Shown here: positions 32,263 to 50,670 of the stretch, piece after piece
Position numbering within the stretch: the first letter of the stretch is position 1
How the letters are laid out: each line of letters begins with the position of its first letter
Assembly (NCBI GenBank): GCA_963815265.1
Contig: CAWFGI010000022.1
Coordinates: 713,870-777,869 of the forward strand
From: an uncultured Acidobacteriota bacterium
GTDB lineage: Bacteria; Acidobacteriota; Terriglobia; Acidiferrales; UBA7541
Reading direction: 5' to 3'
DNA length: 64,000 nucleotides
Made by a program: the position numbers and the translations under genes
Notes under the pieces: generated by a model
The model's input: the letters and a program-made list of their open reading frames with translations, nothing else
Told to the model about the DNA's origin: nothing
Database searches by the model: none

Positions 32263-32273
32263 TCCGAGTAGGA

Positions 32274-37310: not shown

Positions 37311-37423
37311 TGTCCTCGGAGATTCGGCCTGTCCTGTGCTTGGAAACGGCTCAGACTATAGCACCCAGAAACGAAATTGGACGACGACGCGCTGCTTTCA
37401 AGATTGAACCTAGGTAATAGCGC

Positions 37424-37694
37424 TTAATACGTGGTTGAGGTGCGGCGTTCAATAGCCGAGACGACGATGCGTTTTCCGTTTGGAATCCGGAAAAAGAATA
37501 TGCGCCACGCACCGGTCCGCCGGCGAAATGTCTTTTGTTGTCCCTTGAGGAGCTTTAGGTCTCCTTGAAAGGGATTTGTCGCCATCTCCCTGAGAATGCC
37601 TTCGATTCGTTCTCGGTCAGGCGAGGGGACGCGCTCGAGAGACTTTCTTTGCGGGTCCGGCGAGGACGATTTCCCATGGAGCGGAAGTAGTCAT
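37424..37694 (-). pseudogene. RelE/ParE-family toxin interrupted by a 1-nt frameshift
   Basis: ATG at 37694 gives MTTSAPWEIVLAGPAKK. After skipping 1 nt near 37641..37650 (AAAGAAAG) it continues SLERVPSPDRERIEGILREMATNPFQGDLKLLKGQQKTFRRRTGAWRIFFFRIPNGKRIVVSAIERRTSTTY*. The span is 271 nt (3n+1). Confidence 0.7.
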
Positions 37695-37908
37695 CGAGCG
37701 TGATGTAATCGCCCTTTCGATATGCAGCCTCACCGCGCCGGATTGCGCGCAGTTCGGTTACGGTCGCGGATTCGGTAGGAATATTAAAATACAGCCGGAG
37801 CGCCGCAATGGCCACATCGGCGGGATTTCGTTTCTCCCGCTTTGCGGCACGGTCCACACGTCGCCCCACTGCGGGCGGCAACTCAATTGTGTACTGTCGT
37901 CGGCTCAT
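37555..37908 (-). CDS. Ribbon-helix-helix-type antitoxin (C-terminal end uncertain because of the downstream frameshift)
   Basis: MSRRQYTIELPPAVGRRVDRAAKREKRNPADVAIAALRLYF (RHH-like). The ORF overlaps the toxin reading frames. Confidence 0.55.
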   Translation of the reverse strand: MSRRQYTIELPPAVGRRVDRAAKREKRNPADVAIAALRLYFNIPTESATVTELRAIRRGEAAYRKGDYITLDDYFRSMGNRPRRTRKESLSSASPRLTENESKAFSGRWRQIPFKET

Positions 37909-37944
37909 GTCTTCTACAGCCTAACACCCAAGAGTGAGATTCGG

Positions 37945-38215
37945 TAGCACAGGCATTCCTGCCTGTGCCACAAGCCACAGCACACCTCAAATCCTCAATT
38001 CTTGGCGCTCCACGCGACTGCGTTCTTTTCTCGGAACGCCTTATGGGCCGTTTAAGTAGCACAGGCCATTCCTGCCTGTGCCCCAAGCCACAACACAGCA
38101 CACACCCTTACTGCTTGGCGCTCGGCGCGACTAAGTTCTTTTCTCGGAATGCTATCTCGCCCCTTCAGGGGCGACCTAACACCAACCAAAAAACGGGGGC
38201 TTTAGCCCCTGAAGT
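37945..38215. repeat. Two tandem ~110-bp REP/BIME-like units plus a second hairpin type
   Basis: GTAGCACAGGC(A/C)ATTCCTGCCTGTGCC at 37945 and 38056, each followed by ...CTTGGCGCTC..CGCGACT..GTTCTTTTCTCGGAA. A 9-bp inverted repeat CTTCAGGGG/CCCCTGAAG lies at 38163..38171 / 38206..38214. Confidence 0.85.
38188..38210 (-). terminator. Intrinsic terminator candidate for mazG
   Basis: On the minus strand: AGGGGC-TAAA-GCCCC followed by GTTTTTT, beginning 8 nt after the mazG stop codon. Confidence 0.6.
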
Positions 38216-38217
38216 GC

Positions 38218-39195
38218 CTAGCCAGGCGGTGTTTTCTTCCACTTCGCCTCCTCCCACAATTCTTCCATGCGCGCCCGCGGCAAATCCGCCAGCCGCTTGC
38301 CATCGTTCCGCGCCGCGCCCTCCATCCACCCGATTCGATCCTTGAATTTGCGATTCGCCTTCTTCAATGCAATTTCAGGATTCACATCCAGAAACCGCGC
38401 CACATTCACCGCAGCGAAGAGTAAATCCCCAGCCTCTTCTTCGATCCGCGCACGCCCACCATCCTTCCGCTCGCCAATCGCCGAAAGAATCTCCCGCTTC
38501 TCTTCCTCAATCTTGTCGAAGATCCCGTCCACATTGTCCCAATCAAACCCAATTTTCGCCGCACGCAGCGTCAACTCATACGCTTCCAGCGCCGCAGGAA
38601 GCGACCGCGACACTACCGCCAATACCGACTCATCCTTTCCGCGCTCCGGCTTCCCCTCCGCCGCCCGCTCCTCCGCCTTAAGCTGCTCCCAATTCTTAAG
38701 CACTTCCGCCGAAGTCGCTGCCTTCACGTCCCCAAAAACGTGCGGATGCCGCCGCACCATCTTCGAATAAATGGACTCAACCACATCAGCTATCGTGAAG
38801 CGACCAGCCTCCTCCGCCAGCACGGAATGAAACACTACTCGCAACAACAAATCTCCCAGCTCCGACGCAAATTCCCGCGCGTCCCCCGCCTCCATCGCGT
38901 CGAGCACTTCATACGTCTCCTCGACCAAATACTTCCGCAACGATTCATGCGTCTGCTCGCGATCCCAAGGGCATCCACCCGGCGCGCGCAACTGAGTTTG
39001 TAGCGCGACAAGCTTCTCAAACCACTCGCCCGCTGATTCCCTTGCACGCGGGCCAATTACTCTGCCGCCTCTGCGGACGCGCGCGCTCGCTTCAGCCCGG
39101 CCGCGCGATTCCGCGCGGCTCTTCCCCTTCGATTTGCGTCGAGTTTTTCGATGTGCAGACACAGCGATGTTCACAGCTCCTGCGCGACCCGACAA
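38218..39195 (-). CDS. mazG: Nucleoside triphosphate pyrophosphohydrolase MazG (two MazG domains) with an Arg/Lys-rich N-terminal extension
   Basis: GGCPWDREQTHESLRKYLVEETYEVLDAME and a second EEAGDLLFAAVNVARF motif. The first ~50 aa are unusually basic and the start is uncertain. Confidence 0.9.
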   Translation of the reverse strand: MSGRAGAVNIAVSAHRKTRRKSKGKSRAESRGRAEASARVRRGGRVIGPRARESAGEWFEKLVALQTQLRAPGGCPWDREQTHESLRKYLVEETYEVLDAMEAGDAREFASELGDLLLRVVFHSVLAEEAGRFTIADVVESIYSKMVRRHPHVFGDVKAATSAEVLKNWEQLKAEERAAEGKPERGKDESVLAVVSRSLPAALEAYELTLRAAKIGFDWDNVDGIFDKIEEEKREILSAIGERKDGGRARIEEEAGDLLFAAVNVARFLDVNPEIALKKANRKFKDRIGWMEGAARNDGKRLADLPRARMEELWEEAKWKKTPPG

Positions 39196-39325
39196 TCTAC
39201 AGTCCCCCGGCCCCGCCCCACAAGAGCCAATCCAACCGTCCGACTCTGGCTGGAATTGACCTGAGGCCTTTTGCTCCTATGTCGCGTCGCTCCGCACGCG
39301 CTCGCCGCCGGCGGTTTGCTTTTCA

Positions 39326-39350
39326 GTAGCACAGGCAATCCTGCCTGTGC
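39326..39350. repeat. REP copy (GTAG + 9-bp palindrome)
   Basis: GTAGCACAGGCAATCCTGCCTGTGC, in the same orientation as the copies at 37945 and 38056. Confidence 0.85.
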
Positions 39351-39577
39351 CCCAATATCCCCGCGGCACACTCGCGCTAGCCAAGCACTCATCGTCACAC
39401 CGTTCTCTTTCGCTTTTGCCCTTCGGCCTTCGCACACTCAAATTCAAAAATGGCCGACGAAATCTCGTTCGCCCTTCTGCCACCGCGCCACCCCGCCACC
39501 CCGCCTCTCAATCACCCTGAAGATTCTTCTCGAAAAACGCCGCCACTCGCTTCATCAGATAAATTCGCCCCGCGGCA

Positions 39578-41761
39578 TCATTCGCCGGATGCCCCCCGGC
39601 CCGGTAGCAACACAACCTCAATATTCTCCCCGCGCTTGATCGCTTCATCCAGAACCAGCATGGTATTCACAAGGTGAACGTTGTCATCCCCCGTTCCCTG
39701 CCCAATCATCAATTTTCCTTGCAAACCATTCACGAAATTCAGCGGCGATGCTTTCCGATATCCCTCCGGATCATCCTTCGGCAAGCCCAGAAATCGCTCG
39801 GTGGCAATCGAGTCGTACTGAAGCCAATCCGAGACGGGTGCGCCAGCAAATCCCACCTTGAAATCCTGCGGCGCTTCGAAAAGCGCGTGCAGTGTCATGT
39901 GCCCGCCATAGCTCCAACCCCAGATGCCAATACGCTGGCCGTCCACGTAAGGCAACGTACGCAGATACGCCACTCCGTCCCGCTGATCCGCAAGCTCCTG
40001 CACCGCGACGTTGTGATATAGCTTTTCTTGAAAAGCGTGCCCGCGCCCCATCGATCCCCTGTTATCCACTGAGAAAATGATGAACCCTTTTTGCGCCAGG
40101 AACTCATTGAACAGAAAAGTTCCTCCCGTCCACATGTTGCGCACTACTTGCGAAGGACCTCCGTACGTGAAAACGATCACTGGATATTTCTTCGCGGGAT
40201 CGAAATTCGAAGGTTTGATCATCGACGCGTTAAGCAACGTGCCGTCTTTCGCTTTCACCTGGAAAAAGTCGACCGCCGAGAGGCCATAACTCGCCACATC
40301 CGTGATGTTTTCATGAAGCACCGCGATTTGCTTTCCGTCGCCGCCAACCAGCTCTTGGCTCGGAGGCGTCATCACATCCGAGTGGGTGTCAACGAACGCA
40401 GACGCATCGGGAGAAAAGTCCGCGGCGTGCCAGCCAGCCTCCCGCGAAACGCGCTCAAACCCGGAACCGTCCAACGCAACCCGATATATCTGGCGCTCCA
40501 TCGGCCCCTGTTCCGTCGCCGTGAAATAAATCACGCCACGTTTCTCATCGACGCTATCCACAGACTCGACGTCCCACTCGCCACGGGTAATCTGCACCGG
40601 CTCGCCGCCGGTCTTGTAGACATAAAGATGTCGATATCCGCTACGCTCGCTTCCCCAAATGAACCGGTTGCTGTCTTTCGAGAACCACAAAATATCCGTC
40701 ACGTCGACCCACGTTTTCGACTTCTCCGTGAGAACCACATGCGCATCGCCGCTACTCGCATCCGCAATCGTCAGTTCCAGAACATTTGCCACCCGAGCAA
40801 GCCTCTGGATCGCGAGCCGCTTGCTGTCCGGCAGCCACTCGACGCGCGGAATCAAAATCTCCTTGTCGCTGCCAATATCCATCGCGCGAGCCTCTCCCCC
40901 TGCGATCGGCTGTACGAACACGCGCGCTACCGGGTTGGCCTCGCCAGCCCGCGGATACCGGTACGTTTCGTCTTCGGTTAGATCCTCGATGTTGTTTTGA
41001 ATCGTATATTTCGTCACCGCGTGCTCGTCTAATTCAAGATACGCGATCGCCGACGAGTCCGATGCCCACCAGTACCCAGAGCGAATCTCCAGCTCCTCCG
41101 GATACACCCAATCCAGTTGGCCTTTTCGCAATGCTTCGCTCCCGCCCGTCGTCACCGCCCGCGCATCTCCACCGCTCGTGCTCACTATCCACACGTTGTA
41201 ATCGCGCACGAAACTCACCCAGCGGCCGTCGGGCGATATCTTCTCGTCAGTCAGCATTTCTTTACCCGAGACAAGCGTACGCGTAGTCTGAGATTTCAGA
41301 TCGAACCAGACCACCGAGGTCTGCCCGCGAAACAGCATCGCAGTTCCGTCCGGCGAGAATTCAAACGGCGCAGGCGGACGCCGTGCCGCCCCGGTTCGCT
41401 GCCGCAGCGGATAGGGTTGTGGAGGAAGAATCGTCGCGAGTTTATCCGCCGCGATGAGCAAATGCCGCGTTCCGGTCGCCGCATCCATGGTCCAGACTTC
41501 CCGTCGCGCATCTTTCCCTGTGCCTGTCGATTCGAAGAACGCAATCTGTTTGCTGTCAGGAGTCCAGGCAAGGCCACTTGCCAATCTGCCGCTCAAGCCG
41601 GGCTGGCCATAAATTGCTTCAATCGTCAGGGCCTTCGTCGCTTTCGAATCAGCCGATTGCGCAGCCGATTGTGAAAATGATGAGACCGGAAAAAACACAA
41701 TGGCGAACATCGTTCCGGCCAGCAACAACGGCCGTACCCTGCGCTCGATTTTCTGCACCAA
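39578..41761 (-). CDS. S9-family serine peptidase (dipeptidyl-peptidase IV-like: beta-propeller plus alpha/beta hydrolase), C-terminus frameshifted
   Basis: GIWGWSYGGHMTL nucleophile elbow, GTGDDNVH Asp motif. The ORF ends ...LLPGRGASGE*. Removing one G from the G6 run (39592..39597) gives ...PGRGHPANDAAGRIYLMKRVAAFFEKNLQGD*, ending at 39508. Confidence 0.88.
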   Translation of the reverse strand: MVQKIERRVRPLLLAGTMFAIVFFPVSSFSQSAAQSADSKATKALTIEAIYGQPGLSGRLASGLAWTPDSKQIAFFESTGTGKDARREVWTMDAATGTRHLLIAADKLATILPPQPYPLRQRTGAARRPPAPFEFSPDGTAMLFRGQTSVVWFDLKSQTTRTLVSGKEMLTDEKISPDGRWVSFVRDYNVWIVSTSGGDARAVTTGGSEALRKGQLDWVYPEELEIRSGYWWASDSSAIAYLELDEHAVTKYTIQNNIEDLTEDETYRYPRAGEANPVARVFVQPIAGGEARAMDIGSDKEILIPRVEWLPDSKRLAIQRLARVANVLELTIADASSGDAHVVLTEKSKTWVDVTDILWFSKDSNRFIWGSERSGYRHLYVYKTGGEPVQITRGEWDVESVDSVDEKRGVIYFTATEQGPMERQIYRVALDGSGFERVSREAGWHAADFSPDASAFVDTHSDVMTPPSQELVGGDGKQIAVLHENITDVASYGLSAVDFFQVKAKDGTLLNASMIKPSNFDPAKKYPVIVFTYGGPSQVVRNMWTGGTFLFNEFLAQKGFIIFSVDNRGSMGRGHAFQEKLYHNVAVQELADQRDGVAYLRTLPYVDGQRIGIWGWSYGGHMTLHALFEAPQDFKVGFAGAPVSDWLQYDSIATERFLGLPKDDPEGYRKASPLNFVNGLQGKLMIGQGTGDDNVHLVNTMLVLDEAIKRGENIEVVLLPGRGASGE

Positions 41762-42035
41762 TTCCTCCCCAAAGAAACTCGGAGTGTACTCGAACCGCCA
41801 AACAAAAGTGAACTTCCGAACAGCAATCCGTCAGTAGGGGCGGCTCTCAGAGGCGCCCGCGTCCATCGCGCCGACCGTTAAATCTTCGCCAGCGGGGTTA
41901 CGGCATGCCAGCAGACGACGCTGCGCAGCTAGACTGGGCTCAGCCCGAGCGGCCGCGCTAACTTGTGAGTACTTGGAGCGGGTGTTAAACTTTCAAGATA
42001 CTCAAAGTTGGAAAGCTGACTAAAAAGGACGTTCT

Positions 42036-42590
42036 GTGGCTGATCCGAAACCGGAAGAGACATTCAAGGTTATTGACCGGCGCCTCTTCAGCGAAGACGG
42101 CGCCTTGCGCAAAGACGTCGTAGAGGAAGAAGAACGCCGCGAAGAAGAAGCCGCCGCACGAGCAGCGAATCGCGCGGCGGCGAATGCCCCGGCGCAAACC
42201 GACGCGAGCAAGGCCGCAAAAAGCCCGGCCGCTAGTCCGAGTGCCGACGCATCCGCTAGTCTCGCCCCTGGCGAAAATCAGCCCTTCGACGCCGAGCAGC
42301 CGCAAGGCTCGCGCAGCTTCCAGATGCTGGTCGATTTTCTCGTTCGCAATGCCGCTGCCATGCTCGGCGGAATGGCCGATCCGCGCACGGGACAAGCCTA
42401 TCTCGATCTCGAAGGCGCACGCGAAGTGATCGACATGCTCGACGCGTTGCGCGAGAAAACGCGTGGAAATCTCTCCAAAGCCGACGACGACCTTTTGATC
42501 GAAGTCCTCGGACAGCTCAAGCTGACTTTTATGGAGATGTCCAAAGTGGCGGCCGACGCGATGGCGAAAAAGGCCGCGCAGAAAAAGTAG
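42036..42590 (+). CDS. DUF1844-family protein
   Basis: FKVIDRR N-terminus and FQMLVDFLVRNAAAMLGGMADPRTGQAYLDLEGAREVIDMLDALREKTRGNL. GTG start. Confidence 0.75.
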   Translation: MADPKPEETFKVIDRRLFSEDGALRKDVVEEEERREEEAAARAANRAAANAPAQTDASKAAKSPAASPSADASASLAPGENQPFDAEQPQGSRSFQMLVDFLVRNAAAMLGGMADPRTGQAYLDLEGAREVIDMLDALREKTRGNLSKADDDLLIEVLGQLKLTFMEMSKVAADAMAKKAAQKK

Positions 42591-42701
42591 GATAGGCTTC
42601 AGCCTGTCCCAGCGCTAAAGCCCAGCTCGATCGCTGATGCTTGCCTCATGCGCGATGGCGTTCTTTCATTCGGTGCTTCATTTCAGCGCACTTCTCAAAA
42701 A

Positions 42702-43478
42702 ATGCCCCAATCACTTGAGGTAACTGTTCTCGGTTCCGGCACATCAATGGGCGTCCCCACGCTCGGATGCCATTGCGCAGTTTGCGAATCGAAAGATCCG
42801 CACGACAAGCGCACGCGCCCATCCGTCCTGCTCTCTTATGGCGGACGCAATGTCGTCATCGACACAACGCCCGACTTCCGCTCCCAGGCCATGGCCGCGC
42901 ACCTCGATCGCCTCGACGCAATTCTCTACACTCACGCCCACGCCGACCATATCTTCGGCCTCGACGATATTCGCCCCTACAATTTGAAACAGAGAGCCGC
43001 GATTCCCATCTACGCTGCGGAAGCAACGCTGCAAACATTGAAGAGATCGTTTGCCTACATCTTTGACACCGCGCCAACCGACAGCTCATTGCCCGGCGTG
43101 GAATTGCACACGATCGAAGGACCCTTCACACTCTTCGGCGTAGAAATTATTCCTGTCCCCGCAATGCACGGCCCAGGCCAAGTGCTCGGCTTCCGCTTCG
43201 GAAACGCTGCGTACCTGACGGATTTCAGCACGATTCCGGAAAGCTCCAAGGCGCTGCTCAAAGGGCTCGACCATTTTATTCTCGACGCTCTCCGTTATAC
43301 TCCGCACCCAATGCACTCCAACGTGCCGCAATCGCTCGCGCTCGTCGAAGAACTCAAGCCAAAGCACGCCTGGTTCACCCACATCTGCCACGACCTGGGC
43401 CACGAACACACAAATGCCAAGCTCCCGGAAAATGTCCGCCTAGCCTACGACGGCCTCCGCTTCGAGGTGCAAGTCTGA
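42702..43478 (+). CDS. MBL-fold metallo-hydrolase (PhnP-like subgroup)
   Basis: VTVLGSGTSMGVPTLGCHCAVC and YTHAHADHIFGLDD (HxHxDH). The track ORF starts at 42648, but the Met at 42702 is preferred. Confidence 0.8.
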   Translation: MPQSLEVTVLGSGTSMGVPTLGCHCAVCESKDPHDKRTRPSVLLSYGGRNVVIDTTPDFRSQAMAAHLDRLDAILYTHAHADHIFGLDDIRPYNLKQRAAIPIYAAEATLQTLKRSFAYIFDTAPTDSSLPGVELHTIEGPFTLFGVEIIPVPAMHGPGQVLGFRFGNAAYLTDFSTIPESSKALLKGLDHFILDALRYTPHPMHSNVPQSLALVEELKPKHAWFTHICHDLGHEHTNAKLPENVRLAYDGLRFEVQV

Positions 43479-44476
43479 TGCGTGACGAAGCGGCTTCGCT
43501 ACTCACGGTCGCTGATTCGGCTGAGCAGTGGGCCGAGAAATTTGGAGACCTGAATGTTCGCACCGTCGTCACAATCGGAAACTTCGATGGAGTTCACCTG
43601 GGGCACCAAAGAATCTTTCAAGCGGTGAACCATTGGGTCGATCTGAAAGGCAATCTCCACAAGAAGCAGGAACAGTTAACTCCGACGGTCCTCACGTTTT
43701 ATCCCCATCCCGCAAAAGTTCTTCGCCCAGCAGACGCACCTCCGCTTCTCTGCACCTTATCGCAGCGGCTGGCGGAATTCGAGACCGCCGGGATGCATGC
43801 GGCTCTTGTGCTCAAATTCGACGAGCAGTTGGCGAAAGTGAGCGCGGAGGATTTCGCGCGAACCTATCTCGTGGACACTTTGCACGCTCGCGCGGTGTTC
43901 GTGGGCGCAAACTTTCGCTTCGGCCACAAGCAGGCCGGCGACGTGAAGCTTCTCGAAGATCTCGGCCGGCGCTGGGATTTTGAAGTGCAGGTCGTGCCGC
44001 CCGTGATTCAGTACGGCATCGTCGTCTCGAGCACCGCGGTGCGCAGCGCGGTGCGCGACGGACGCATGGAAGATGCGTCGCGATTGCTGGGCCGTCCGTT
44101 TGCACTCGCGGGAGAAATCAAAACCGGAACCGGACAGGGACGCAAACTCGTCGTGCCCACGCTGAACCTCGCGACCGAACAGGAATGCCTGCCGAAGAAC
44201 GGCGTCTACGCAACGGAAAGCGTGATCGCCGGCAAGAAATATCGCTCGGCGACGAACATCGGCGTGCGGCCAACCTTCGACGGCCAGCGCCTGGCGATCG
44301 AATCGCATCTCTTCGATTTTTCTGAAAACTTAACGAGCGGTGCGATGGAAGTGCGTTTCTGGAAGCGGTTGCGGGACGAAAAGAAATTCTCGGGGCCGGA
44401 AGCGCTGCGCGAGCAGGTGCTGCGCGACATCAGCGAAGCGCAGGCGTACTTTGCGTCGCTCGCGCAGCCGAAGTAG
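43478..44476 (+). CDS. ribF: Bifunctional riboflavin kinase / FMN adenylyltransferase
   Basis: VVTIGNFDGVHLGHQ, PTLNL, and E.HLFDF motifs. Its ATG overlaps the upstream TGA. Confidence 0.95.
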   Translation: MRDEAASLLTVADSAEQWAEKFGDLNVRTVVTIGNFDGVHLGHQRIFQAVNHWVDLKGNLHKKQEQLTPTVLTFYPHPAKVLRPADAPPLLCTLSQRLAEFETAGMHAALVLKFDEQLAKVSAEDFARTYLVDTLHARAVFVGANFRFGHKQAGDVKLLEDLGRRWDFEVQVVPPVIQYGIVVSSTAVRSAVRDGRMEDASRLLGRPFALAGEIKTGTGQGRKLVVPTLNLATEQECLPKNGVYATESVIAGKKYRSATNIGVRPTFDGQRLAIESHLFDFSENLTSGAMEVRFWKRLRDEKKFSGPEALREQVLRDISEAQAYFASLAQPK

Positions 44477-44577
44477 CGCATGCCACGCCTCAGCGCTCGG
44501 CGTCAATCGACAGGGGAAATCGGAATTGACGGATAATTATTTCCCTTGCTGCTGGTCGTAAACTTCACTTCCTGCAG

Positions 44578-44620
44578 CCGAACTGCGTGTAGCGAAATCT
44601 TTCGAGTCGGTTTTTTCTTC
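44578..44620 (+). terminator. Terminator candidate after ribF
   Basis: CCGA(A)CT ... AGTCGG stem followed by TTTTTT at about 44611..44616. Confidence 0.4.
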
Positions 44621-44666
44621 TTCAGCAATTTGCGGTCTTTCATCATTCCACCTCAATGACGTGCGA

Positions 44667-45173
44667 TCACGAACTGGCGCGCTGCTTCTCCTGCTTCCGG
44701 CATTCCGTGCAAACGCCGCCGATTTCCGTGCGGCTCACGGTGATGTCGATGCTGCAGTCGCGCGCGATCTGCTGCTTCAGCTCTTCGTACAACTCGCTTT
44801 CCACTTCGCGCACTTTTCCGCAGCGCAGACAGGCAACGTGAATATGGTCGCGCGGGCCGTGGCTCTCGTAGAAATGGCGGTCGCCGCGAAGATGCAGCAG
44901 GTCGAGCTCGTCAATCAGGCCGTGGCGCTTCAGCAAATCGATTGTGCGATACACGGTGACGCGCGTGATGTTGGAATCGATTTTTTGCGCTCGTTCGAGA
45001 ATTTCGCCGGCGTCGAGATGGCGGCGCGCCGTCTCCATCACCTGCAGGAGCACGCGGCGCTGGCGCGTGAGCCGGATACCGCGCGAGCCGAGCTCGCGCT
45101 GCAAACGTCCGGGCGCTTCGTGGACGTTGATTCGTTCTCCGGTTGAGACGCGATGTGCGGGTGTGGCAGCCAT
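44667..45173 (-). CDS. Fur-family metalloregulator (PerR/Fur/Zur-like)
   Basis: LTRQRRVLLQVM...TVYRTIDLLKRHGLI winged helix, and two CxxC pairs (CLRCGK, CTECRK). The track ORF extends to 45275. Confidence 0.85.
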   Translation of the reverse strand: MAATPAHRVSTGERINVHEAPGRLQRELGSRGIRLTRQRRVLLQVMETARRHLDAGEILERAQKIDSNITRVTVYRTIDLLKRHGLIDELDLLHLRGDRHFYESHGPRDHIHVACLRCGKVREVESELYEELKQQIARDCSIDITVSRTEIGGVCTECRKQEKQRASS

Positions 45174-45278
45174 ATTCGCTAATGGAAGATTATACCAAAT
45201 GCCGATTCGGAGCCGGGCAAAACGAATCTGCCCGCACCGGTTCGCGTCGCGATGATTTGAAGCGGCTCGCGACATGTT

Positions 45279-46298
45279 TCATTCACCTGGTGGGGCGACC
45301 GGAGGTTTTTCATGGAGCGCGCCTTTGCCTGTCATGGCGGCGATGATTTGGCGGCCGTGGAAGCGGCCGTTCTCGATGAAGATTTCGCCGGTGTGCATTC
45401 CGCCGACCACGACGCCCGCGACGTAGATTCCCGGCACATTGCTTTCGAGGCTTTCGGGATTTATTTGCGGCTTTTTCGTCACCGGGTCGAGGCGGATTCC
45501 CTGCTGTTCGAGAAATTCGAAGTCGGGATGATAGCCGGTCATCGCAAAAACCTGTGCGGCGGGCAAGGCCTGCTCGTGGGAGTTGGTTTGCACCCAGACT
45601 TTGCCGGGCTCGATGCGCGACACTTTGGCATTGAATAGCGCTGCAATTTCGCCGGCGCGGATGCGATTTTCGATGTCGGGCTTCACCCAGTATTTCAGGC
45701 TCTTGCCGAGGGCCGCATCGCGATGAACCAACGTCACGTGCGCGCCGCCGCGAAATAAATCGAGCGCCGCTTCCGCCGCTGAATTTTTCCCGCCGATCAC
45801 GACGACATTCTGCTTCCAGTAGGGATGCGCGTCGGTGAAATAGTGCGAGACGTGCGGCAAGGTTTCGCCGGGAATATCGAGCGGATTGGGCCGGTCGTAG
45901 TAGCCCGTGGCGATGATAATTTTCTTGCCGTGGAATTCCTGCTTCGCACCGGCTTCGTCGCGCGTGTGGACGACGAAAGCCCCGTCATGACCGCTGATCT
46001 TATCGACGGTTTCATAGAGCCGCGTTTCGATTTCGTAGTGTTCGACGGCGCGGCGGTAGTAGTTGAGCGCCTCGGCACGCGTGGGCTTCCCTGCCGCGAT
46101 GGTCATGGGCAGGTCGCCGATTTCCATGCGCTCGGGCGTGGTGAAGAACGTCATGTTGACGGGGTAGTGGTAGAGCGAATTGCAGAGGCAGCCCTTGTCG
46201 ATGACAAGCGGGCGCATGGCGGCGCGCTTGGCTTCGATGGCGCAGGCGAGACCGGTGGGGCCGGCGCCGATGCAGATGACGTCGTAGGCGTCAGGCAT
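45279..46298 (-). CDS. ypdA: YpdA-family FAD/NAD(P)H disulfide reductase (putative bacillithiol disulfide reductase type)
   Basis: YDVICIGAGPTGLACA, NSLYHYPVNMTFFTT, IIATGYYD, VVVIGGKNSAAEAALDL, FAMTGYHPDFEFLE and EIFIENGRFHG closely follow B. subtilis YpdA as I recall it. ATG at 46298 (track ORF extends to 46436). Confidence 0.8.
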   Translation of the reverse strand: MPDAYDVICIGAGPTGLACAIEAKRAAMRPLVIDKGCLCNSLYHYPVNMTFFTTPERMEIGDLPMTIAAGKPTRAEALNYYRRAVEHYEIETRLYETVDKISGHDGAFVVHTRDEAGAKQEFHGKKIIIATGYYDRPNPLDIPGETLPHVSHYFTDAHPYWKQNVVVIGGKNSAAEAALDLFRGGAHVTLVHRDAALGKSLKYWVKPDIENRIRAGEIAALFNAKVSRIEPGKVWVQTNSHEQALPAAQVFAMTGYHPDFEFLEQQGIRLDPVTKKPQINPESLESNVPGIYVAGVVVGGMHTGEIFIENGRFHGRQIIAAMTGKGALHEKPPVAPPGE

Positions 46299-47028
46299 CG
46301 GCTGGCCCTCGGATCTGAGCGGCGGCGCAGAGTGATGGAAACGCCGAAACATTGTTCCGCCACGGCGGACGCGAAAACCGCGTTTTGTGTCCATTAGAAA
46401 TTTGCTTAGTCTTTTGTTTTCCGCTAGTTGACTCAATTTCTGAAATGTCGATTGTTCCCATTAGAAAATTGGGCGTTCTGCCGTTCTCAGAATTTTCGCA
46501 GGATCACAGTTGAGTTCCTTCGACTCCCGGTGGTCGCTTCCTTCGTGCCTCAGGACAGGCAGGATGCCGATCCTGGCCGGATCGTCAGTTCCCATTAGCC
46601 GCCGCGGCGGCCGGGGAAATTCTCGGCTGGGTGAGCGGGCGGTCTTCTCCGAGGAGTTCGCCGGCGGAAGGCGCCGGAACTCCGAAGCGGCCCAATTTTC
46701 GGACTGAAAAATCGTCATAAATCTGCGATTAGAAATTTTTAGGTTGCTGATTCTTTTAGGACTTAGCTCGAATTCTAATTCCAGATTTGCGATTAGAAAT
46801 TGGAGAGCATCGCTGAGGCAGCGATGCTCGGCAGGTGTCGTCGCCAGCCAGCCAGCGTGTTGACCGCTGTAGTTCCACTGAAACGCTCCTTTCTTTTCCC
46901 ATTGGGAGCCGCGTTCGAGTTTGCGTTCAGCTCCCATGATGTTAGATGACGGTAGCATGCGGAAAAGTTGGTTTGCAAGGAGTGGTTCGACTGAGAATCT
47001 TGCGCAGCGCTTGGGCAAAGTCAAAAGA

Positions 47029-47050
47029 GCCGGCAGGATGCCGGCGCTAC
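47029..47050. repeat. REP copy in opposite orientation
   Basis: GCCGGCA-GGA-TGCCGGC followed by GCTAC (GTAG on the minus strand). Confidence 0.7.
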
Positions 47051-47083
47051 TAGGGAACGATGCCATCGTCCTCTCGATTTTGA

Positions 47084-47947
47084 TTATGTGGCGGGTACGG
47101 CGCGGCGCGACGCCCATTTGGAGGAAACGACCCATGCAGGATCAAACGTAAATAGATGCAGGAGCACCATGCCCGCCGTAAGATCGGGAAAAGAAATCAG
47201 CAGAAACAAACCGATATGGAGAGATAGCATCGCACTCCAGATCCATGGGCGAAGCTGTCGAAATAATGACAGCGGCGCGAATGCGACTTCTAATCCAAGA
47301 GCACTCCAAGTAGCTGCTTTCAGAAAGGGAGTGGGAAGAGCTAACAGCCAGTGACGAAGCGAGCCCGGCCTTGCGAGGGGATTTGAAAGTATTCGCGCGA
47401 GTGCGGTGCCATCAAGCCACGAAGGGCTCCCCAGCTTCATCACGCCGCTATAGCTGTAGCCCAGGGACATGAGTATCCACGCGACTAAATAAATTGCAGG
47501 AGGCATTTGCCAATTCTGATTCGGCTCTCGTCGGATGCGTGCGGCGAGCGAACCGACGGGTGCAGTGGGGAGAAAGGCATGCGCGAGCAACAACCATCCG
47601 ACATACGGAAGCGCAGGATTCGCAATCAGAGGGTTGCGCCCTAAGAAGCAGGCGCCGAAATACCAGAGGGTAATCGCGGCCACTCGATCCCATAGACCAA
47701 TCGCAAAGAGCACGGCTGCCAAGATTGCAATGACCAAAACCAGCTGCACAAAGAACGGCGAATCCCAAACAGCCAGGAGATTTGGGAAGAGATGGACCAG
47801 AGGGCTCAACGATGGCATCGGCAGCAAGCCCCGGTCGGAAAATAATTCCGGACCCCATGGCAGTAACTGGGCATAGTGGAGCGCAAGATAGCTTCCGAAG
47901 AGAGCGCGAAAAATGCTGTACTGCCCGCCCGTCCAGCCGTTTTTCAT
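47084..47947 (-). CDS. Polytopic membrane protein, HTTM/SdpB-like (tentative)
   Basis: YSIFRALFGSYLALHY..., AILAAVLFAIGLWDRVAAITLWYF..., NPALPYVGWLLLAHAFLP resemble HTTM-domain proteins. Its ATG overlaps the upstream stop (ATGA). Confidence 0.45.
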   Translation of the reverse strand: MKNGWTGGQYSIFRALFGSYLALHYAQLLPWGPELFSDRGLLPMPSLSPLVHLFPNLLAVWDSPFFVQLVLVIAILAAVLFAIGLWDRVAAITLWYFGACFLGRNPLIANPALPYVGWLLLAHAFLPTAPVGSLAARIRREPNQNWQMPPAIYLVAWILMSLGYSYSGVMKLGSPSWLDGTALARILSNPLARPGSLRHWLLALPTPFLKAATWSALGLEVAFAPLSLFRQLRPWIWSAMLSLHIGLFLLISFPDLTAGMVLLHLFTFDPAWVVSSKWASRRAVPAT

Positions 47948-48432
47948 GGGCAGGAAGGAGTGATCAGAAATTCCGGCTCAGAAAATTGTGTATTCGAACG
48001 AACCAGAAGGCGAATGTTCGGAGGTTCTGCGAGACTCGCAGGATCAATTCCGAGTTCGCGCAGAAGCGGCGCGCGGCCGCAAAGGGCATATCGGACAACA
48101 GATTCATACATAGGTTTCGTGCGCGGATCGACGGAGAGCACGGGGGCATAAGCGAGTGCGGCGCCGAATACATTTCTACGGTTATAAGGTCCGCGTACGC
48201 GTGAATAGAGTTCCGGTGTCAGCTCTAATGAATGCTCGCCGCCAGCTCGGTCGCGCCACTCAAGGTAGAATACGGACGAGAATGTCTCTAGCCCCTGAAC
48301 GCTGGAAAAGACCTTTGGAGCCGGCGACGCGCCGGTAGCCGCCGCAACAGCTTTCAGGGCCGGCAGTCTGAGCAGATCGCCCGTCATTTGAAGCAAACCA
48401 ACTACAAGCAGAAACAGGGCTGCGCGGCTCAT
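47944..48432 (-). CDS. Hypothetical exported/anchored protein (162 aa)
   Basis: N-terminal hydrophobic segment MSRAALFLLVVGLLQM. No family recognised. There are 4-nt overlaps at both ends. Confidence 0.5.
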   Translation of the reverse strand: MSRAALFLLVVGLLQMTGDLLRLPALKAVAAATGASPAPKVFSSVQGLETFSSVFYLEWRDRAGGEHSLELTPELYSRVRGPYNRRNVFGAALAYAPVLSVDPRTKPMYESVVRYALCGRAPLLRELGIDPASLAEPPNIRLLVRSNTQFSEPEFLITPSCP

Positions 48433-49205
48433 CGAGTGGGATGTGGCTCCGGAGGTTGCGCGTTGATATCCACGCCGATTAGCATTTCAGGGAGACGATG
48501 TTCGAGGGGGCCGAAACCGCATCGCGATTGCCATTCTTTGGGATTGCGAAACGTTCCGAAGAGCATGTCCCAGAGCGGTAAGTCGGCATAGTTGAAAGAG
48601 TGCAATCCTTCTTGATGGTGAACGCAGTGGCTTTCAGGCCTTTGAAAAATGTAGCCGAGCCAGTGGGGTGTGCGGACGTTCCAGTGATAGACGAGCTCGG
48701 CTAATCCCGTCAGCAAGACAGCGAGCGAGGCAGCTTTGGGAGAAAGGCCGACAACCAGATATAGGATGGCGCTGGATAGCACACTATTTACGAGAATCTC
48801 CAGCGGGTGCTTGTAAAAACTTGTTATGACTTCGATTCTTTGCGGGCTGTGGTGTACTTGGTGAATCCAGCGCCAGAGAAATGTTGATTCATGGCGCCAG
48901 CGATGCCACCAGTAATAGATGAATGTAATTACAAAATATCCGAGTAGGGTGCCGCCGACGGTGCCGAGTCTATCGGCTGACCACAAACGGTGCTGGGCCA
49001 TCCAGCCGTTCCCGACCGACCCAGCAAGCCAGACGGCTCCGACCTGAAATCCGTTCAGTAAGATCGCTCGCCACCACCAGCCCCGCACGCTTGGCCAACT
49101 TCGGCCACCAGCGATGCGCTCGACAACGATCATTCCGATCGCTACGGCGAGGACGATCCAGAAGACGATCATTAGATCCTCCGGCAAGGAAGGACATTGG
49201 CTCAA
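48429..49205 (-). CDS. Fatty acid hydroxylase / sterol desaturase-family di-iron membrane enzyme
   Basis: His boxes HRWRH, HQVHH and HHQEGLH. Confidence 0.85.
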   Translation of the reverse strand: MSQCPSLPEDLMIVFWIVLAVAIGMIVVERIAGGRSWPSVRGWWWRAILLNGFQVGAVWLAGSVGNGWMAQHRLWSADRLGTVGGTLLGYFVITFIYYWWHRWRHESTFLWRWIHQVHHSPQRIEVITSFYKHPLEILVNSVLSSAILYLVVGLSPKAASLAVLLTGLAELVYHWNVRTPHWLGYIFQRPESHCVHHQEGLHSFNYADLPLWDMLFGTFRNPKEWQSRCGFGPLEHRLPEMLIGVDINAQPPEPHPTR

Positions 49206-49400
49206 AACGGTTTAGATAGCTATCGAATGAGTTTATGGCATCGCTGGCAAGCGACGCAATGCAGCGGTTCCACAAAGCCAACCGGCTGCAAGCGAGTGAT
49301 ATACAACGACGCGGAACGGCGAAGATTAGATTAAAAGAGGCGGGGAGATGCGCTTGGTAGCTCAGGACAAGCCGGCGCGGCAAAGGCAACCAGTGATAAA

Positions 49401-49454
49401 TGGCGTGATTGTGCCAAGTTCGGGTGCCGGGCACGGCATGCCGTGCCCCTACTG
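49401..49454. repeat. 54-bp direct repeat, left copy (carries REP palindrome GGGCACGGCATGCCGTGCCC + CTAC)
   Basis: 52/54 identical to 50181..50234. Confidence 0.9.
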
Positions 49455-49487
49455 GTTAACGGCCCGTTCGACCTTGAGCGGGGTGGG

Positions 49488-49997
49488 TCATTGTACATCT
49501 AGGGGGTCGGCGGTTTTGTGTTCGCGGATTTGGTAGCGGAGGTAGTCGTGGACGGCTTTTAGGGCTTGGGGGTCTTCTGTGGTGATTACGACTTTTGCGC
49601 CGGTTGGGGTGGATTTGTATTGGTATGTGATTTGGGCTTTGCGGGCTTTCATTTCGGGGACGCCTGGTGGGGTTTCGGCGTGGACTTCGTGGGGGTCGGT
49701 GAAGTCGCCTTGAGCGAAGGATTTGGAGATGTGTTCGAGGTGCATGCGGATGTGGTCGCGGCTGGCTGTGTCGGAGGGGTCGTTGGCTTGGACTTGGATG
49801 ATGCCGCCGGTTTTTGTGAGGGTGAAGTGATGGGTGGTTTTGGTTTGGTCGAAGCCCATTACGTGGGCGCCGCGGGTGTTCATGGCGGTGGGGTCGTCGT
49901 GTTGTTGTTGGGGGCTGGCTGCTGCTGCTGCTGTGGGTGCGAGCAGGAATAGGCATGCGGCTATTGTTTGGATCGTGTGCGATGGGCGAATCGGCAT
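49488..49997 (-). CDS. Secreted hypothetical protein with extreme C/A-ending codon usage
   Basis: ATG at 49997, signal peptide MPIRPSHTIQTIAACLFLLAPTAAAAA. The mature part HHFTLTKTGGIIQVQ...IRMHLEHISKSFAQGDFTDPHEVH...VHDYLRYQIREHKT resembles conserved hypothetical proteins I cannot name. Confidence 0.6.
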   Translation of the reverse strand: MPIRPSHTIQTIAACLFLLAPTAAAAASPQQQHDDPTAMNTRGAHVMGFDQTKTTHHFTLTKTGGIIQVQANDPSDTASRDHIRMHLEHISKSFAQGDFTDPHEVHAETPPGVPEMKARKAQITYQYKSTPTGAKVVITTEDPQALKAVHDYLRYQIREHKTADPLDVQ

Positions 49998-50180
49998 TGG
50001 ATTGTGTGAGTTCAATTCATTCGACGAATGGTTTTGGTCAGGGTGAGCTAGAGGCAGAGGCGACGACTGCGGTTGCGGGCGAACGCCTGATTGGCAGGGT
50101 TGCCGTTAAGAGAAGCGCGCAGGCGACATTTTCATGAGCCGCCTTCCGGCGGACGACCTGTGCCACCAAACCGTTGCCAG

Positions 50181-50234
50181 TGGCGCGATTGTGCCAAGTT
50201 CGGGTGCCGGGCACGGCGTGCCGTGCCCCTACTG
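50181..50234. repeat. 54-bp direct repeat, right copy
   Basis: TGGCGCGATTGTGCCAAGTTCGGGTGCCGGGCACGGCGTGCCGTGCCCCTACTG. Confidence 0.9.
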
Positions 50235-50255
50235 CGGAAAAGGCAAAGGCGAAGA

Positions 50256-50516
50256 TTAGGCTTTGGATGCTGCGCCTTTGATTACGCGGTAGATGAGCAG
50301 CAGAACGACGGCGCCTACTACGGACATTATGAAGCCGGCGCCCTGGCCTGCCTGGTACCAGCCGATAGCTTGGCCGATGTAGGTGGCGAGGATGGAGCCG
50401 GCGATGCCGATGATCATGGTGATCCAGATGCCGCCGGGGTCTTTGCCGGGCATGAGGAATTTTGCTACTGCGCCGACTACGAGGCCGATGATGAGTTCCC
50501 AGAGTAAGGCGAACAT
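50256..50516 (-). CDS. GlsB/YeaQ/YmgE-family stress-response membrane protein
   Basis: MFALLWELIIGLVVGAVAKFLMPGKDPGGIWITMIIGIAGSILATYIG, with AGGAGG 6 nt upstream of ATG 50516. The longer track ORF is rejected. Confidence 0.85.
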   Translation of the reverse strand: MFALLWELIIGLVVGAVAKFLMPGKDPGGIWITMIIGIAGSILATYIGQAIGWYQAGQGAGFIMSVVGAVVLLLIYRVIKGAASKA

Positions 50517-50670
50517 TGGCGTCCTCCTGGATTCGACTCGTGAATTTGAACTCGCCGTTTTGTGAATTCCGAAATAAATCGCTGATGGGCCCGCGCTGAA
50601 ACCTTCAGATCGAAATTGAGTGCGCGCCGCGAGTATTGCGCCGTTGCTCCGGCAACGTTTTGCCGCGAAT

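Follow-up and report, generated by a model that had tools for sequence, protein, structure and literature searches.

A strand-composition flip with the polarity of a replication origin at the ribF-fur-ypdA locus of uncultured soil Acidobacteriota

In E. coli, Caulobacter and some cyanobacteria the chromosomal origin oriC lies away from dnaA. Mammalian chromosomes carry skew 'N-domains' around replication initiation zones, and in archaea local skew or Z-curve extrema are found at multiple origins. C-depleted strands that point apart are the signature of a place where replication forks diverge. Criteria for bacterial oriC have been set out for Ori-Finder (PMC10225481), and archaeal multi-origin replication is the subject of PMC3936714 and PMC4595724.

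The locus described here shows an origin-type strand switch without the usual bacterial origin hallmarks, in a group of uncultured soil Acidobacteriota. Its features are given below in coordinates of the window, which is the whole 64-kb stretch of DNA that was analysed.

12416..43478, genes on both strands: left domain, in which the + strand is C-rich in either gene orientation.
43400..44100, + strand: hypervariable segment with mosaic alleles, corresponding to the N-terminal FAD-synthetase domain of ribF.
43478..45278, genes on both strands: switch zone with ribF (+), a small conserved ORF (-) and a Fur-family regulator (-); it contains the cumulative minimum at 43761.
44520..44655, - strand: the small conserved ORF, which occupies most of the ribF/fur 'spacer'.
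45275..45279, no strand: synteny breakpoint fur|ypdA, relative to lineages without the flip.
45279..57220, every window gene on the - strand: right domain, in which the + strand is G-rich.
46299..47083, + strand: the largest non-coding stretch near the switch, with two homologous AT-rich units of ~90 bp each.
57252..58863, - strand: parB-parA, of chromosomal type, 13.5-15 kb to the right of the switch.

Like a dnaA-distant oriC, the locus has a minus-to-plus skew change that is independent of gene orientation, parAB within 15 kb, a position conserved in relatives, and a conserved AT-rich intergenic region with repeated boxes within ~3 kb of the switch. Unlike such an oriC, it has no DnaA-box cluster, parS, dnaA or dnaN in the ~88 kb sampled, its step falls at a gene boundary in a coupled operon, the genes on the right are head-on, and the skew is strong only locally. 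With N-domains and archaeal origins it shares the upward jump, an amplitude that is largest beside the jump and declines over tens of kb, a weak reversal farther out, and a second upward change ~24 kb from the switch; however, the host is bacterial, and neither an Orc/Cdc6-type initiator gene nor repeated origin elements were seen in ~90 kb. The iteron-type origins of plasmids and secondary chromosomes are resembled by four same-orientation copies of a 10-mer and two AT-rich units, unique to the locus and with parAB nearby. The 10-mer copies, however, are spaced 64-67 bp and 110-270 bp apart versus ~22 bp for iterons, no Rep gene is present, and the neighbours are housekeeping genes syntenic with chromosomal regions of relatives; the 10-mer element may be no more than an operator region for the ypdA-fur operon. 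Breakpoints of intra-replichore inversions or translocations are matched by the fur|ypdA break near the minimum, its phylogenetic match with the right arm, and the disequilibrium of the right arm in the in-group. Unlike at such breakpoints, the left arm is unrearranged relative to outgroups and at equilibrium, and the state of the right arm cannot be made by inverting a co-oriented block and is maintained across saturated synonymous divergence.

In the window, C exceeds G on the + strand at ~13-43.5 kb and G exceeds C at ~44.5-57 kb, with the cumulative G-C minimum at 43761. GC skew per 1 kb was -0.09 to -0.34 at 13-44 kb and +0.02 to +0.24 at 44-53 kb, a single change-point model gained 113 log-likelihood units, and the ends of the window (the first 12 kb and the last 5 kb) were approximately neutral. 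A preliminary description, made from the letters of the window, had reported a flip from C-rich to G-rich near 43.5-44.7 kb and a nearly neutral first ~11 kb; the former was borne out by skew, GC3 skew and the change-point model, and the latter extends to the last 5 kb. Three of its four hand counts of G/C were exact (24/54, 27/38 and 78/62), and the fourth was 47/16 and not 46/17. It had also proposed that GC3 skew be computed per gene; on the + strand this was negative for plus and minus genes alike at 15-43.5 kb and positive for minus genes at 44.7-57 kb, and its sign therefore differs between the two sides. The codon third-position preferences held as well: minus genes had a GCG/GCC of 149/13 at 34-41.8 kb and of 75/121 at 44.7-58.9 kb, and plus genes at 19-43.5 kb had 47/70. 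Two-fold codons are likewise poor in C on the strand presumed to be leading (GAT/GAC 64/41 left versus 49/83 right; ATT/ATC 71/39 left versus 45/125 right). The plus genes at 59-63 kb do not lean to G-ending codons as had been claimed (GC3 skew -0.01 to -0.15; GCG/GCC 30/28 at 59-63.6 kb). On the given strand the polarity is C-rich to G-rich irrespective of gene orientation, and the earlier argument that this is the polarity of an origin is sound. The independence of gene orientation, also claimed earlier, stands for the left arm in the window; for the right arm, which has no reliable plus-strand gene in the window, it stands via the relatives, whose right arm is also G-rich, plus-strand genes included (MarR +0.25, DCC1 +0.34 and YndJ +0.21 in L027; SSB +0.55 in L114). 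The flip is confirmed as real and as tied to the DNA strand, not to the genes.

The sharp step of the flip is at the MBL|ribF boundary (43478), where GC3 skew changes from -0.38 to ~0; farther right it climbs to +0.2 in fur and +0.35 in ypdA. The preliminary description had placed the flip within or next to ribF and the ribF/fur spacer; ribF itself is approximately neutral. MBL has a GC3 skew of -0.38 in each third (12 genomes pooled), and the skew of the left domain, which peaks at 34-39 kb, ends abruptly at the MBL stop codon, a gene boundary within a translationally coupled operon. In relatives (n=12) the cumulative minimum lies +215 to +461 bp inside ribF, along which pooled GC3 skew was -0.13, +0.12, -0.20, -0.01 and +0.21, followed by +0.19 in fur. 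In outgroups without the flip, fur had a GC3 skew of +0.26 to +0.42 (L015, L016, L018 and L116) or ~+0.1 (L010 and L117), which leaves room for a gene-specific contribution, though not a uniform one. The 190-bp ribF/fur convergent spacer of the preliminary description proved to be mostly the small minus-strand ORF, in which a 16-locus alignment shows a conserved RBS and ATG and then an ORF beginning MMKDRKLLKKKKPTRK; in L117 a 43-aa gene is called at this position. The region 43.4-45.3 kb is fully coding and has no non-coding AT-rich unwinding element. Nucleotide identity of the hypervariable segment to L014, L019 and L020 goes down to 37-67%, versus ~82-99% in most 100-bp windows of the adjoining genes. 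In the intact type-C copies of ribF (L013 and L014) protein identity is 49-50% for the N-domain and 96-97% for the C-domain; L019 and L020 have the same divergent segment, with a reading frame that breaks after ~70-150 residues. In outgroup ribF both domains diverge about equally.

Each AT-rich unit upstream of ypdA is bounded by direct copies of ATTAGAAAWT (at 46393, 46460, 46728 and 46792), a 10-mer found nowhere else in the window. The units, at 46.37-46.81 kb, have a minimum GC of 0.30-0.32 and lie 2.6-3 kb to the right of the cumulative minimum; measured from the sharp step, this nearest candidate element is 2.6-3.3 kb to the right, with ypdA (+0.35) on its 'wrong' side. Unit B is nearly identical across all relatives, and 1-5 direct copies of ATTAGAAAWT are present upstream of ypdA in all lineages sampled there (in-group, L011, L021, L027/L028). 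An ORF at 46461-47135 looks spurious. The stretch 46299..47083 may be either the control region of ypdA-fur or a candidate cis-acting origin element.

GC3 skew of the + strand in the left domain was -0.08 to -0.58 in minus genes and -0.15 to -0.41 in plus genes. Four-fold sites there counted C562/G182, an observed skew of -0.51, and the skew predicted at equilibrium from the substitutions is -0.31 (-0.46 to -0.18), or -0.45 on shared-derived changes. With substitutions as they run today, the left arm is close to equilibrium and its asymmetry is active. Gene order and orientation up to fur are retained even in outgroups, and therefore the left arm is not inverted; its asymmetry is specific to the in-group, weak in L011 and absent in L010. 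L019 has a small inversion of 30.2-33.7 kb. In the right domain GC3 skew of the + strand was mostly +0.2 to +0.47, with one gene at +0.83; the gene at 49488-50015 has an extreme GC3 skew of -0.83. The ORFs of a variable segment at 46.5-48.4 kb had only -0.04 to +0.10, a few small ORFs at 50.7-54.9 kb had 0.05-0.18, and the presence of the segment 47.1-49.2 kb is variable. Four-fold sites counted G316/C131, but the substitution process predicts a skew of just +0.06 (-0.16 to +0.24), so the skew appears to decay in the in-group. The right arm is older, being common to L011 and L027. Its skew is equal or stronger in L025 and L027 despite four-fold sites that are approximately saturated relative to the in-group, and it must therefore be maintained there. 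With lower bounds of the substitution estimate at -0.16 (block 5a) and -0.08 (block 6), leftward forks of equal asymmetry strength in the right blocks are disfavoured.

The skew is not replichore-wide and is strong only over tens of kb. Leftward it fades to ~-0.08 by 31 kb (-0.08 over 31-43 kb) and is weakly positive 35-52 kb to the left; both far-left states are stationary. Rightward it is ~0 or negative from parB (parAB) to Tol-Pal and negative over ExbB to Pal, and in the in-group strong positive skew returns at +24 to +36 kb. C-ending codons prevail in ExbB, TolB and Pal of the in-group; for ExbB and TolB the skew is -0.15 to -0.25 there and near 0 in L025/L027. Possible further upward changes lie at YbgF|M28 (~24 kb away) and, in L033, ~51 kb to the left (~90 kb sampled). 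Neighbouring blocks are stationary at unlike levels of asymmetry (-0.45, -0.07 and +0.11), as estimated block by block from parsimony-based substitutions with wide intervals. A further synteny break, RR|CSD, lies ~8 kb to the left of a change from weakly positive to weakly negative skew.

The window contains no dnaA, as had been stated in the preliminary description, and neither dnaA nor dnaN is present in the ~88 kb of sampled neighbourhood (~-52 to +36 kb). Likewise, scans for DnaA boxes bear out the earlier statement that there is no cluster: 8 TTATCCACA-like hits at <=1 mismatch occur in the 64-kb window, none of them intergenic near the flip, three DnaA-box variants form no significant cluster in the window, and TTATCCACA alone has 0-2 unclustered matches per 20-kb flanking locus (8 loci). 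No parS within 3 mismatches was found in the window or in the parAB neighbourhoods of relatives. Rep, relaxase, integrase and phage genes are absent. Gene orientation does not diverge from the site, the genes being mostly minus on the left and, in the window, entirely minus on the right. A replication terminus was rejected; it needs a polarity from G-rich to C-rich, the opposite of that observed, and no dif-like core within 3 mismatches was found, nor any dif in the ~88 kb sampled. The parAB pair reported ~13-15 kb to the right was confirmed, at 13.5 kb, by profile matches (ParB_N and HTH_ParB of Pfam for parB, AAA_31/CbiA for parA; TIGR00180 above cutoff). The flip site is not a canonical oriC. 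The reading as a replication origin retains polarity, conservation and parAB in its favour, but has against it the missing hallmarks, the uneven skew and the lack of a flip in lineages with the older gene order.

Two strand-composition domains that point apart meet at the flip, a long-standing boundary; the C-depleted strand is minus on the left and plus on the right. Our preferred but tentative reading, with a probability of about 0.4, is that replication initiates between 43.5 and 47.1 kb, at an origin or another initiation site. Replication in this genus-level clade of Acidiferrales-like Acidobacteriota would start in this zone, which spans ribF, fur, ypdA and the conserved AT-rich repeats upstream of ypdA, and forks would run leftward through 13-43.5 kb and rightward via ypdA to parAB. 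The mostly minus genes of the left arm are co-oriented with such forks, and the right-arm genes of the window are all head-on to them. The observed polarity, orientation independence and conservation of the flip, its derived state and the near-equilibrium of the left arm are the starting point; from these we infer that the asymmetry is probably caused by replication, that the site may be the chromosomal origin and not a secondary initiation site, and that this origin would be non-canonical, without recognisable DnaA boxes. The amplitude, strong nearby and weak far off, may stem from extra or arrested fork passages near the origin, from local rearrangements at a later time, or from both. On a 5.18-Mb contig (CAVUGO010000002.1) and on a 1.05-Mb contig alike, the switch is found at 49.8% of the length; the chance of both is ~1e-3 by a post hoc estimate, and the positions fit contigs with a coverage peak as their centre of symmetry or with their break at the antipode. 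It is quite doubtful that initiation occurs without a DnaA-box cluster in and next to coding DNA (ribF to ypdA), with its forks dominant only over tens of kb. The site would then be either a chromosomal origin at which frequent abortive or arrested initiation over-exposes origin-proximal DNA, or one among several initiation zones of a bacterial chromosome; initiation would have damaged the hypervariable ribF domain in passing, and the initiator would bind the ATTAGAAAWT array.

Twelve related Acidiferrales-like genomes, with 20-35% divergence at four-fold sites, have the same switch in the same position. It is absent from related lineages that keep the older order ribF-fur-rseP-dxr, and therefore arose together with the rearrangement immediately right of fur. 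In L010, L015, L016, L018 and L117 the minus-strand genes rseP (M50), dxr, cdsA and uppS come immediately after fur; L116, with three other genes between fur and rseP-dxr, has a uniform skew of +0.2 across the locus and no flip. In the in-group, L011, L021 and L027 ypdA lies to the right of fur. The comparison of synteny with relatives, which the preliminary description had proposed, thus located a breakpoint at fur|ypdA, 1.5-1.8 kb from the cumulative minimum; relative to relatives there is no break at MBL|ribF or ribF|fur. The lineages with the G-rich right arm are exactly those descended from the ancestor in which the breakpoint arose. The flip is a derived state linked to this rearrangement. 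The rearrangement junction suggested earlier is partly borne out (45275/45279), but not as a simple inverted block, which was rejected: even outgroups share the collinearity of the left arm with ribF-fur, this arm is near equilibrium under the current substitution process, and inverting a normal co-oriented block cannot yield minus genes with C-rich coding strands, as in the right arm. Nor do the two sides share one substitution asymmetry, as expected of a relaxing relic block (left -0.31, right +0.06); the right arm relaxes toward ~0, not toward -0.3.

It is possible, if somewhat unlikely, that two independently skewed blocks were joined by the ancestral rearrangement right of fur, the forks coming from an origin outside the sampled region and the flip being one of many block boundaries in a patchy skew. 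The breakpoint and the G-rich right arm appear at the same point of the phylogeny, and the arms differ in history, the right being older (L011, L027), out of equilibrium and decaying toward ~0 in the in-group, the left in-group specific. At least five sign changes in ~90 kb, the RR|CSD break, the inversion in L019 and the lack of oriC hallmarks also agree with such a junction, and ~64% of genes across both arms are minus (our own count, sampled loci), as leftward forks throughout predict. However, in every outgroup the left arm keeps its collinearity with ribF-fur, and it is close to equilibrium; it is therefore no inverted relic, nor is it decaying. The minus genes with a G-rich plus strand in the right arm are impossible by inverting a normal co-oriented block. 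A junction also sits poorly with a right-arm skew maintained in L025 and L027 at approximately saturated divergence, and adjacent stationary blocks of very different skew are not predicted by uniform asymmetry plus rearrangements.

A local strand-asymmetric process, issuing from the ribF-ypdA locus and fading with distance, unlike normal bidirectional replication from a single oriC, is unlikely. It might be an initiation site that is secondary or often aborts, one of several zones with N-domain-like fork polarity, or repeated single-strand exposure or transfer. The amplitude peaks 1-10 kb away from the locus and is down to ~0 within 15-35 kb to either side, the sign weakly reverses beyond the arms (positive far left, negative from ExbB to Pal) and turns upward again at YbgF|M28, and the neighbouring blocks are stationary at their three unlike levels. 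The active arm depends on the lineage: in L011/L027 it is the right one, and in the in-group it is the left one together with the block at +24 to +36 kb. The ribF segment at the focus is hypervariable only in lineages with the flip, and the locus-unique direct-repeat array travels with the ypdA block. Against such a process stands the lack of Rep, relaxase, integrase or phage genes; part of the decay can be gene-specific codon bias (ExbB, TolB, fur), and the block-wise estimates rest on parsimony with wide intervals. To our knowledge, moreover, multi-origin replication is essentially undocumented in bacteria except some cyanobacteria.

That codon-usage selection, expression level or foreign genes mimic the flip is highly improbable: although fur (in four outgroups) and ExbB, TolB and Pal (in the in-group) depart from their neighbours, the gene at 49488-50015 is extreme (-0.83) and the presence of the 47.1-49.2 kb segment varies, these are housekeeping genes in conserved synteny, their orthologues in outgroups are without such bias, the right arm of relatives behaves likewise in both orientations, and the idea is largely refuted by the plus and minus genes of the left arm, which have opposite coding-strand preferences and share the plus-strand skew.

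The G + C content of the window was 57%. GC skew of its plus strand, computed in 1-kb windows, was near 0 at 1-12 kb, ranged from -0.06 to -0.34 at 13-44 kb (with the extreme at 34-40 kb) and from +0.02 to +0.24 at 44-53 kb, and returned to near 0 past 59 kb. The minimum of the cumulative G-C curve is at 43761, 283 bp into ribF (43478-44476, plus strand), and a one-change-point model gained 113 log-likelihood units. In the arm to the left of this switch (~13-43.5 kb) the GC skew at third codon positions (GC3 skew, always expressed on the plus strand) was about -0.2 to -0.58 in minus genes and -0.15 to -0.41 in plus genes; the minus genes of the right arm (~44.5-57 kb) had positive values. The depletion of C on one strand was seen at four-fold and two-fold sites alike. 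The preliminary description had based its claim of a switch on four hand counts, all of which were right to within one base, and on codon contrasts that proved real: for GCG/GCC, minus genes had 149/13 at 34-41.8 kb but 75/121 at 44.7-58.9 kb, and plus genes at 19-43.5 kb had 47/70. A lean towards G-ending codons in plus genes at 59-63.6 kb was refuted, the GC3 skew there being -0.01 to -0.15. The product of the minus-strand gene at 49488-50015 (175 aa) has a signal-peptide-like N-terminus and no Pfam match. The coding-strand GC3 skew of this gene is -0.83, A far outnumbers T at third positions and its neighbours are far less biased; all relatives keep this bias (+0.69 to +0.83 on the plus strand).

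The window belongs to an uncultured lineage of Acidobacteriota. The source contig measures 819,590 bp, close homologues carry the label 'Candidatus Acidiferrales' in their sources, and the gene content of the window is that of an ordinary chromosome:

ppdK, glyQS, recO, pfkB, rhomboid, MCP and icd
mazG and a DPP-IV-like peptidase, then the operon DUF1844-MBL-ribF (MBL, metallo-beta-lactamase-type gene)
Fur-family regulator (fur), ypdA, fatty-acid hydroxylase, LysM and DUF3011 proteins
peptidase S51, MFS transporter, parB-parA, miaB and exbBD

Neither dnaA nor dnaN is among these genes, and tRNA and Rfam scans of the window gave no match.

A genome scan with one genome per species yielded 19 loci around ribF (homologous loci and contigs are designated by L-numbers), and in 12 of the 19 the cumulative skew minimum lay +215 to +461 bp within ribF. 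In these 12 genomes, the in-group, neighbouring proteins are mostly 82-100% identical and four-fold-site distances are 0.20-0.35. A single change-point on automatic ORF calls scattered from -2 to +0.85 kb in most genomes with the switch, and by more in L011 and L013, as Nanopore MAGs contain frameshifts and the genes are heterogeneous; codon positions anchored on orthologues were used in its place. The GC3 skew profile was then alike in all 12 genomes. Pooled over them, MBL had -0.38 in each third, ribF averaged about 0, fur had +0.19 and ypdA +0.10 to +0.54. Since MBL is flat up to its stop codon and ribF is about 0, the sharp step is the junction of MBL and ribF (43478), which overlap by 1 base; the change of sign is fully complete by ypdA. 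Loci L013 and L020 both come from MAG MFD05377.bin.3.143, and these two contigs over one region, with a four-fold-site distance of 0.06, mean either that the bin mixes two strains or that a large duplication exists. The frameshifts in ribF, ypdA and DPP-IV of the MFD loci L004, L019 and L020 are probably Nanopore indel errors, the alternative being pseudogenes.

The skew was followed leftwards on a contig of the same strain (L110), two relatives (L022 and L023) and metagenome contigs (L030-L038), and rightwards on in-group contigs (L112-L115). On the left it was about -0.08 at 1-12 kb of the window and weakly positive, +0.1 to +0.3 in both gene orientations, over the next 16-20 kb; two genes still further left on L033 were negative again. 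On the right side of the in-group, S51 had +0.41 and MFS +0.28, parB and parA +0.06 to +0.21, BFN and MiaB about 0, and ExbB, ExbD, TolB and Pal -0.07 to -0.25, followed by +0.2 to +0.6 in M28, three small ORFs, SSB (a plus-strand gene) and LTXXQ, reaching +36 kb. In L025 and L027, which are more distantly related, right-arm values were +0.45 to +0.6 in the vicinity of S51 and AhpC, and parAB and MiaB had +0.2 to +0.3. Genes on the plus strand of these two loci (MarR, DCC1, YndJ and kumamolisin-like) were likewise positive, so the right-arm skew is independent of gene orientation. As the skew varies from block to block the landscape is a mosaic, in which the switch at ribF is by far the largest step and no clean replichore-wide V is seen. 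Two contigs, one of 5.18 Mb in L014 (CAVUGO010000002.1) and one of 1.05 Mb in L003 (CAVTOS010000002.1), each have the switch at 49.8% of their length; on the remaining long contigs it is found at 8-91%. Our post hoc estimate of the probability that both 49.8% positions arose by chance is about 1e-3, and such positions are expected if contigs grow equally far to both sides of a coverage peak or are broken opposite it, at the antipode. This is suggestive; the positions reflect either chance or contigs symmetric about a replication pole. About 9-10 kb past the right end of the window, L112-L115 contain a HigB/HigA-like toxin-antitoxin pair (Gp49 and HTH_37), situated with variable small ORFs between peptidase M28 and ssb. 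In L113 a transposase (rve) fragment is present between parA and BFN.

Distant relatives share the gene order on the left (racemase-like, GNAT, mazG, DUF1844, MBL, ribF, small ORF, fur) and have rseP-dxr-cdsA-uppS to the right of fur; none of them has the switch. In the outgroup locus L117 skew is absent on both sides, and in L116 it is about +0.2 uniformly over the locus in either gene orientation. A ypdA gene after fur is found only in the in-group, L011, L021 and L027, a set that coincides exactly with the lineages whose right arm is G-rich; the right arm is therefore the older of the two. The strong left arm is restricted to the in-group, being weak in L011 and absent in L010. Judged from this distribution, the switch is a derived state. 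In L019 a PilZ-ADH-DUF983-GGDEF block (L019:1-2760, window 30220-33652) is inverted and moved beside mazG, with a skew of about 0 between -10 and -5 kb; small local inversions therefore occur hereabouts and take their skew along.

Substitutions at four-fold sites were polarised by in-group majority rule and the equilibrium skew was computed from the rates. Counts polarised by outgroups had given negative equilibria for the right blocks; they were judged to be biased by the G-rich composition of the outgroups and were redone by majority rule.

Equilibrium skew (95% interval in brackets) and observed skew
Left arm, all classes: equilibrium -0.31 (-0.46 to -0.18), observed -0.51
Left arm, shared-derived changes: equilibrium -0.45, observed -0.51
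Right arm, fur to DUF3011: equilibrium +0.06 (-0.16 to +0.24), observed +0.41
S51-MFS: equilibrium -0.07 (-0.35 to +0.20)
parB to YbgF: equilibrium +0.07 (-0.08 to +0.21)
M28 to LTXXQ: equilibrium +0.27 (-0.06 to +0.51)
Weak block, window 1-12 kb: equilibrium -0.07, observed -0.08
Weak block further left: equilibrium +0.11, observed +0.10

Use of the shared-derived class is supported by its agreement with the observed GC3. These rates indicate that the left-arm asymmetry is actively maintained. The right arm of the in-group appears to be decaying toward a weak value, yet is maintained in L025 and L027, and adjacent blocks are stationary at widely different levels of asymmetry.

The divergence or replacement of ribF is centred on the switch. 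At 43400-44100 (ribF codons 1-207) nucleotide identity to L014, L019 and L020 drops to 37-67%; in the adjacent genes most 100-bp windows are ~82-99% identical to these loci. The N-terminal FAD-synthetase domain occurs as at least three protein alleles, 47-86% identical to each other:

Type A: the window and L003-L005
Type B: L006-L009, 79-86% identical to type A
Type C: L013 and L014, only 47-50% identical to type A

L019 and L020 have the divergent DNA segment of type C, with the reading frame broken after ~70-150 residues. The C-terminal riboflavin-kinase domain is 91-99% identical across all alleles. In outgroup ribF both domains are about equally divergent; only lineages with the switch therefore show the accelerated divergence or replacement. 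The N-terminal domain looks like the product of domain-level xenologous replacement or of strongly accelerated divergence.

Three stretches had been singled out as possible sites of a canonical oriC, and none turned out to be one. The spacer upstream of DUF1844 (41762-42035) contains just a conserved promoter and a lineage-variable terminator, the supposed ribF/fur spacer (44477-44666) a conserved small minus-strand ORF and a hairpin instead, and 46299-47083 contains repeats and no DnaA boxes. The small ORF (~45 aa, 44520-44655, minus strand, start MMKDRKLLKKKKPTRKISLHAVRLQEVKF) has its own RBS and is unannotated; in L117 a 43-aa gene has been called at its place. Clusters of DnaA boxes were absent from the window, using TTATCCACA, TTGTCCACA or TTTTCCACA, and from 8 flanking loci, using TTATCCACA only. 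There was no parS in the window or in the loci of relatives. A terminus was rejected, as no dif core was found and the polarity is opposite to that expected. Close to the switch, non-coding DNA of appreciable length occurs only upstream of ypdA (46299-47083), with these features:

46380-46810: a pair of homologous AT-rich units, each ~90 bp long and bounded by ATTAGAAAWT in direct orientation
46393, 46460, 46728 and 46792: the four direct copies of ATTAGAAAWT

One of the units is nearly invariant in all relatives. ATTAGAAAWT has no copy elsewhere in the window and is confined to the locus upstream of ypdA in all sampled DNA, with 1-5 direct copies in every lineage sampled there. The units are a putative operator array, sRNA or origin element. 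The region may simply serve as operator of the ypdA-fur operon. No other stretch is a candidate origin element, but ypdA (+0.35) is on the wrong side for this. Only two perfect 16-bp palindromes are present in the window, GCACGGCATGCCGTGC and GTAGTAAATTTACTAC (49431-49446 and 53705-53720); the right arm contains both, and they do not resemble parS.

Skew switches are a familiar feature of origins, and origins that lie away from dnaA are familiar too. Three features, namely polarity, depletion of C on one strand and independence of gene orientation, point to a replication-type asymmetry diverging from 43.5-45.3 kb. Based on these, on the exclusion of a simple inversion and on the hint from the contig positions, we tentatively favour a replication origin or initiation site within 43.5-47.1 kb (probability roughly 0.4). 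It would be non-canonical, and would have arrived or been created together with the rearrangement between fur and ypdA. An inverted, co-oriented right block could not have minus genes with C-rich coding strands, and the right-arm state persists across lineages with saturated synonymous divergence; the left block is collinear with the outgroups and at equilibrium, which excludes its inversion. Two other explanations are kept alive because the hallmarks of an origin are missing, the right arm is head-on with weak present asymmetry, and the skew further out is weak or reversed. The first, a composite junction at which blocks with separate histories were joined, is less likely; the second, in which a strand-asymmetric process acts locally or the site is one among several initiation zones, is slightly less likely still. 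A codon-usage or foreign-DNA artefact mimicking the switch is essentially excluded.

Acidobacteriota are a dominant, mostly uncultured soil phylum; our literature searches found neither origins nor local skew islands described for it, and no experimental mapping of its replication origins. An origin at this site would be far from dnaA, in a gene-dense stretch and without recognisable DnaA boxes. The switch is recent enough for relatives that have it to be compared with relatives that lack it, so that existing long-read metagenomes allow a direct test of how an origin-type boundary is born or relocated. If it is not an origin, a strong, stationary and region-specific strand asymmetry is possible in a bacterial chromosome, and caution is needed with origin calls from skew alone in MAGs. 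The unusual aspect is that five features occur together: the switch is conserved, of high amplitude and located at a gene boundary; ~88 kb contain no recognisable origin elements; the asymmetry is strongly region-specific yet stationary; a gene segment at its focus is hypervariable; and its evolutionary onset is datable.

Two gene calls next to the repeat region probably need correction. The ORF at 46461-47135 (minus strand, 224 aa) is probably spurious, since its translation is not protein-like and it is interrupted in relatives by indels that are not multiples of three. For ypdA (called at 45279-46436, minus strand) the true start is probably near 46298 and not the TTG at 46436, because the called products of relatives are 339-371 aa. 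Adjoining the ATTAGAAAWT repeats is a variable cassette (47084-49205) of three genes, encoding an SdpB-like membrane protein, a 162-aa ORF and the fatty-acid hydroxylase, which is also found in L008, L020 and L021. In L003, L005, L014 and others it is replaced by a different insert of ~3 kb; in L007, L013 and L014 the replacing insert opens with a putative GbsR/MarR-type regulator ORF, as judged by eye.
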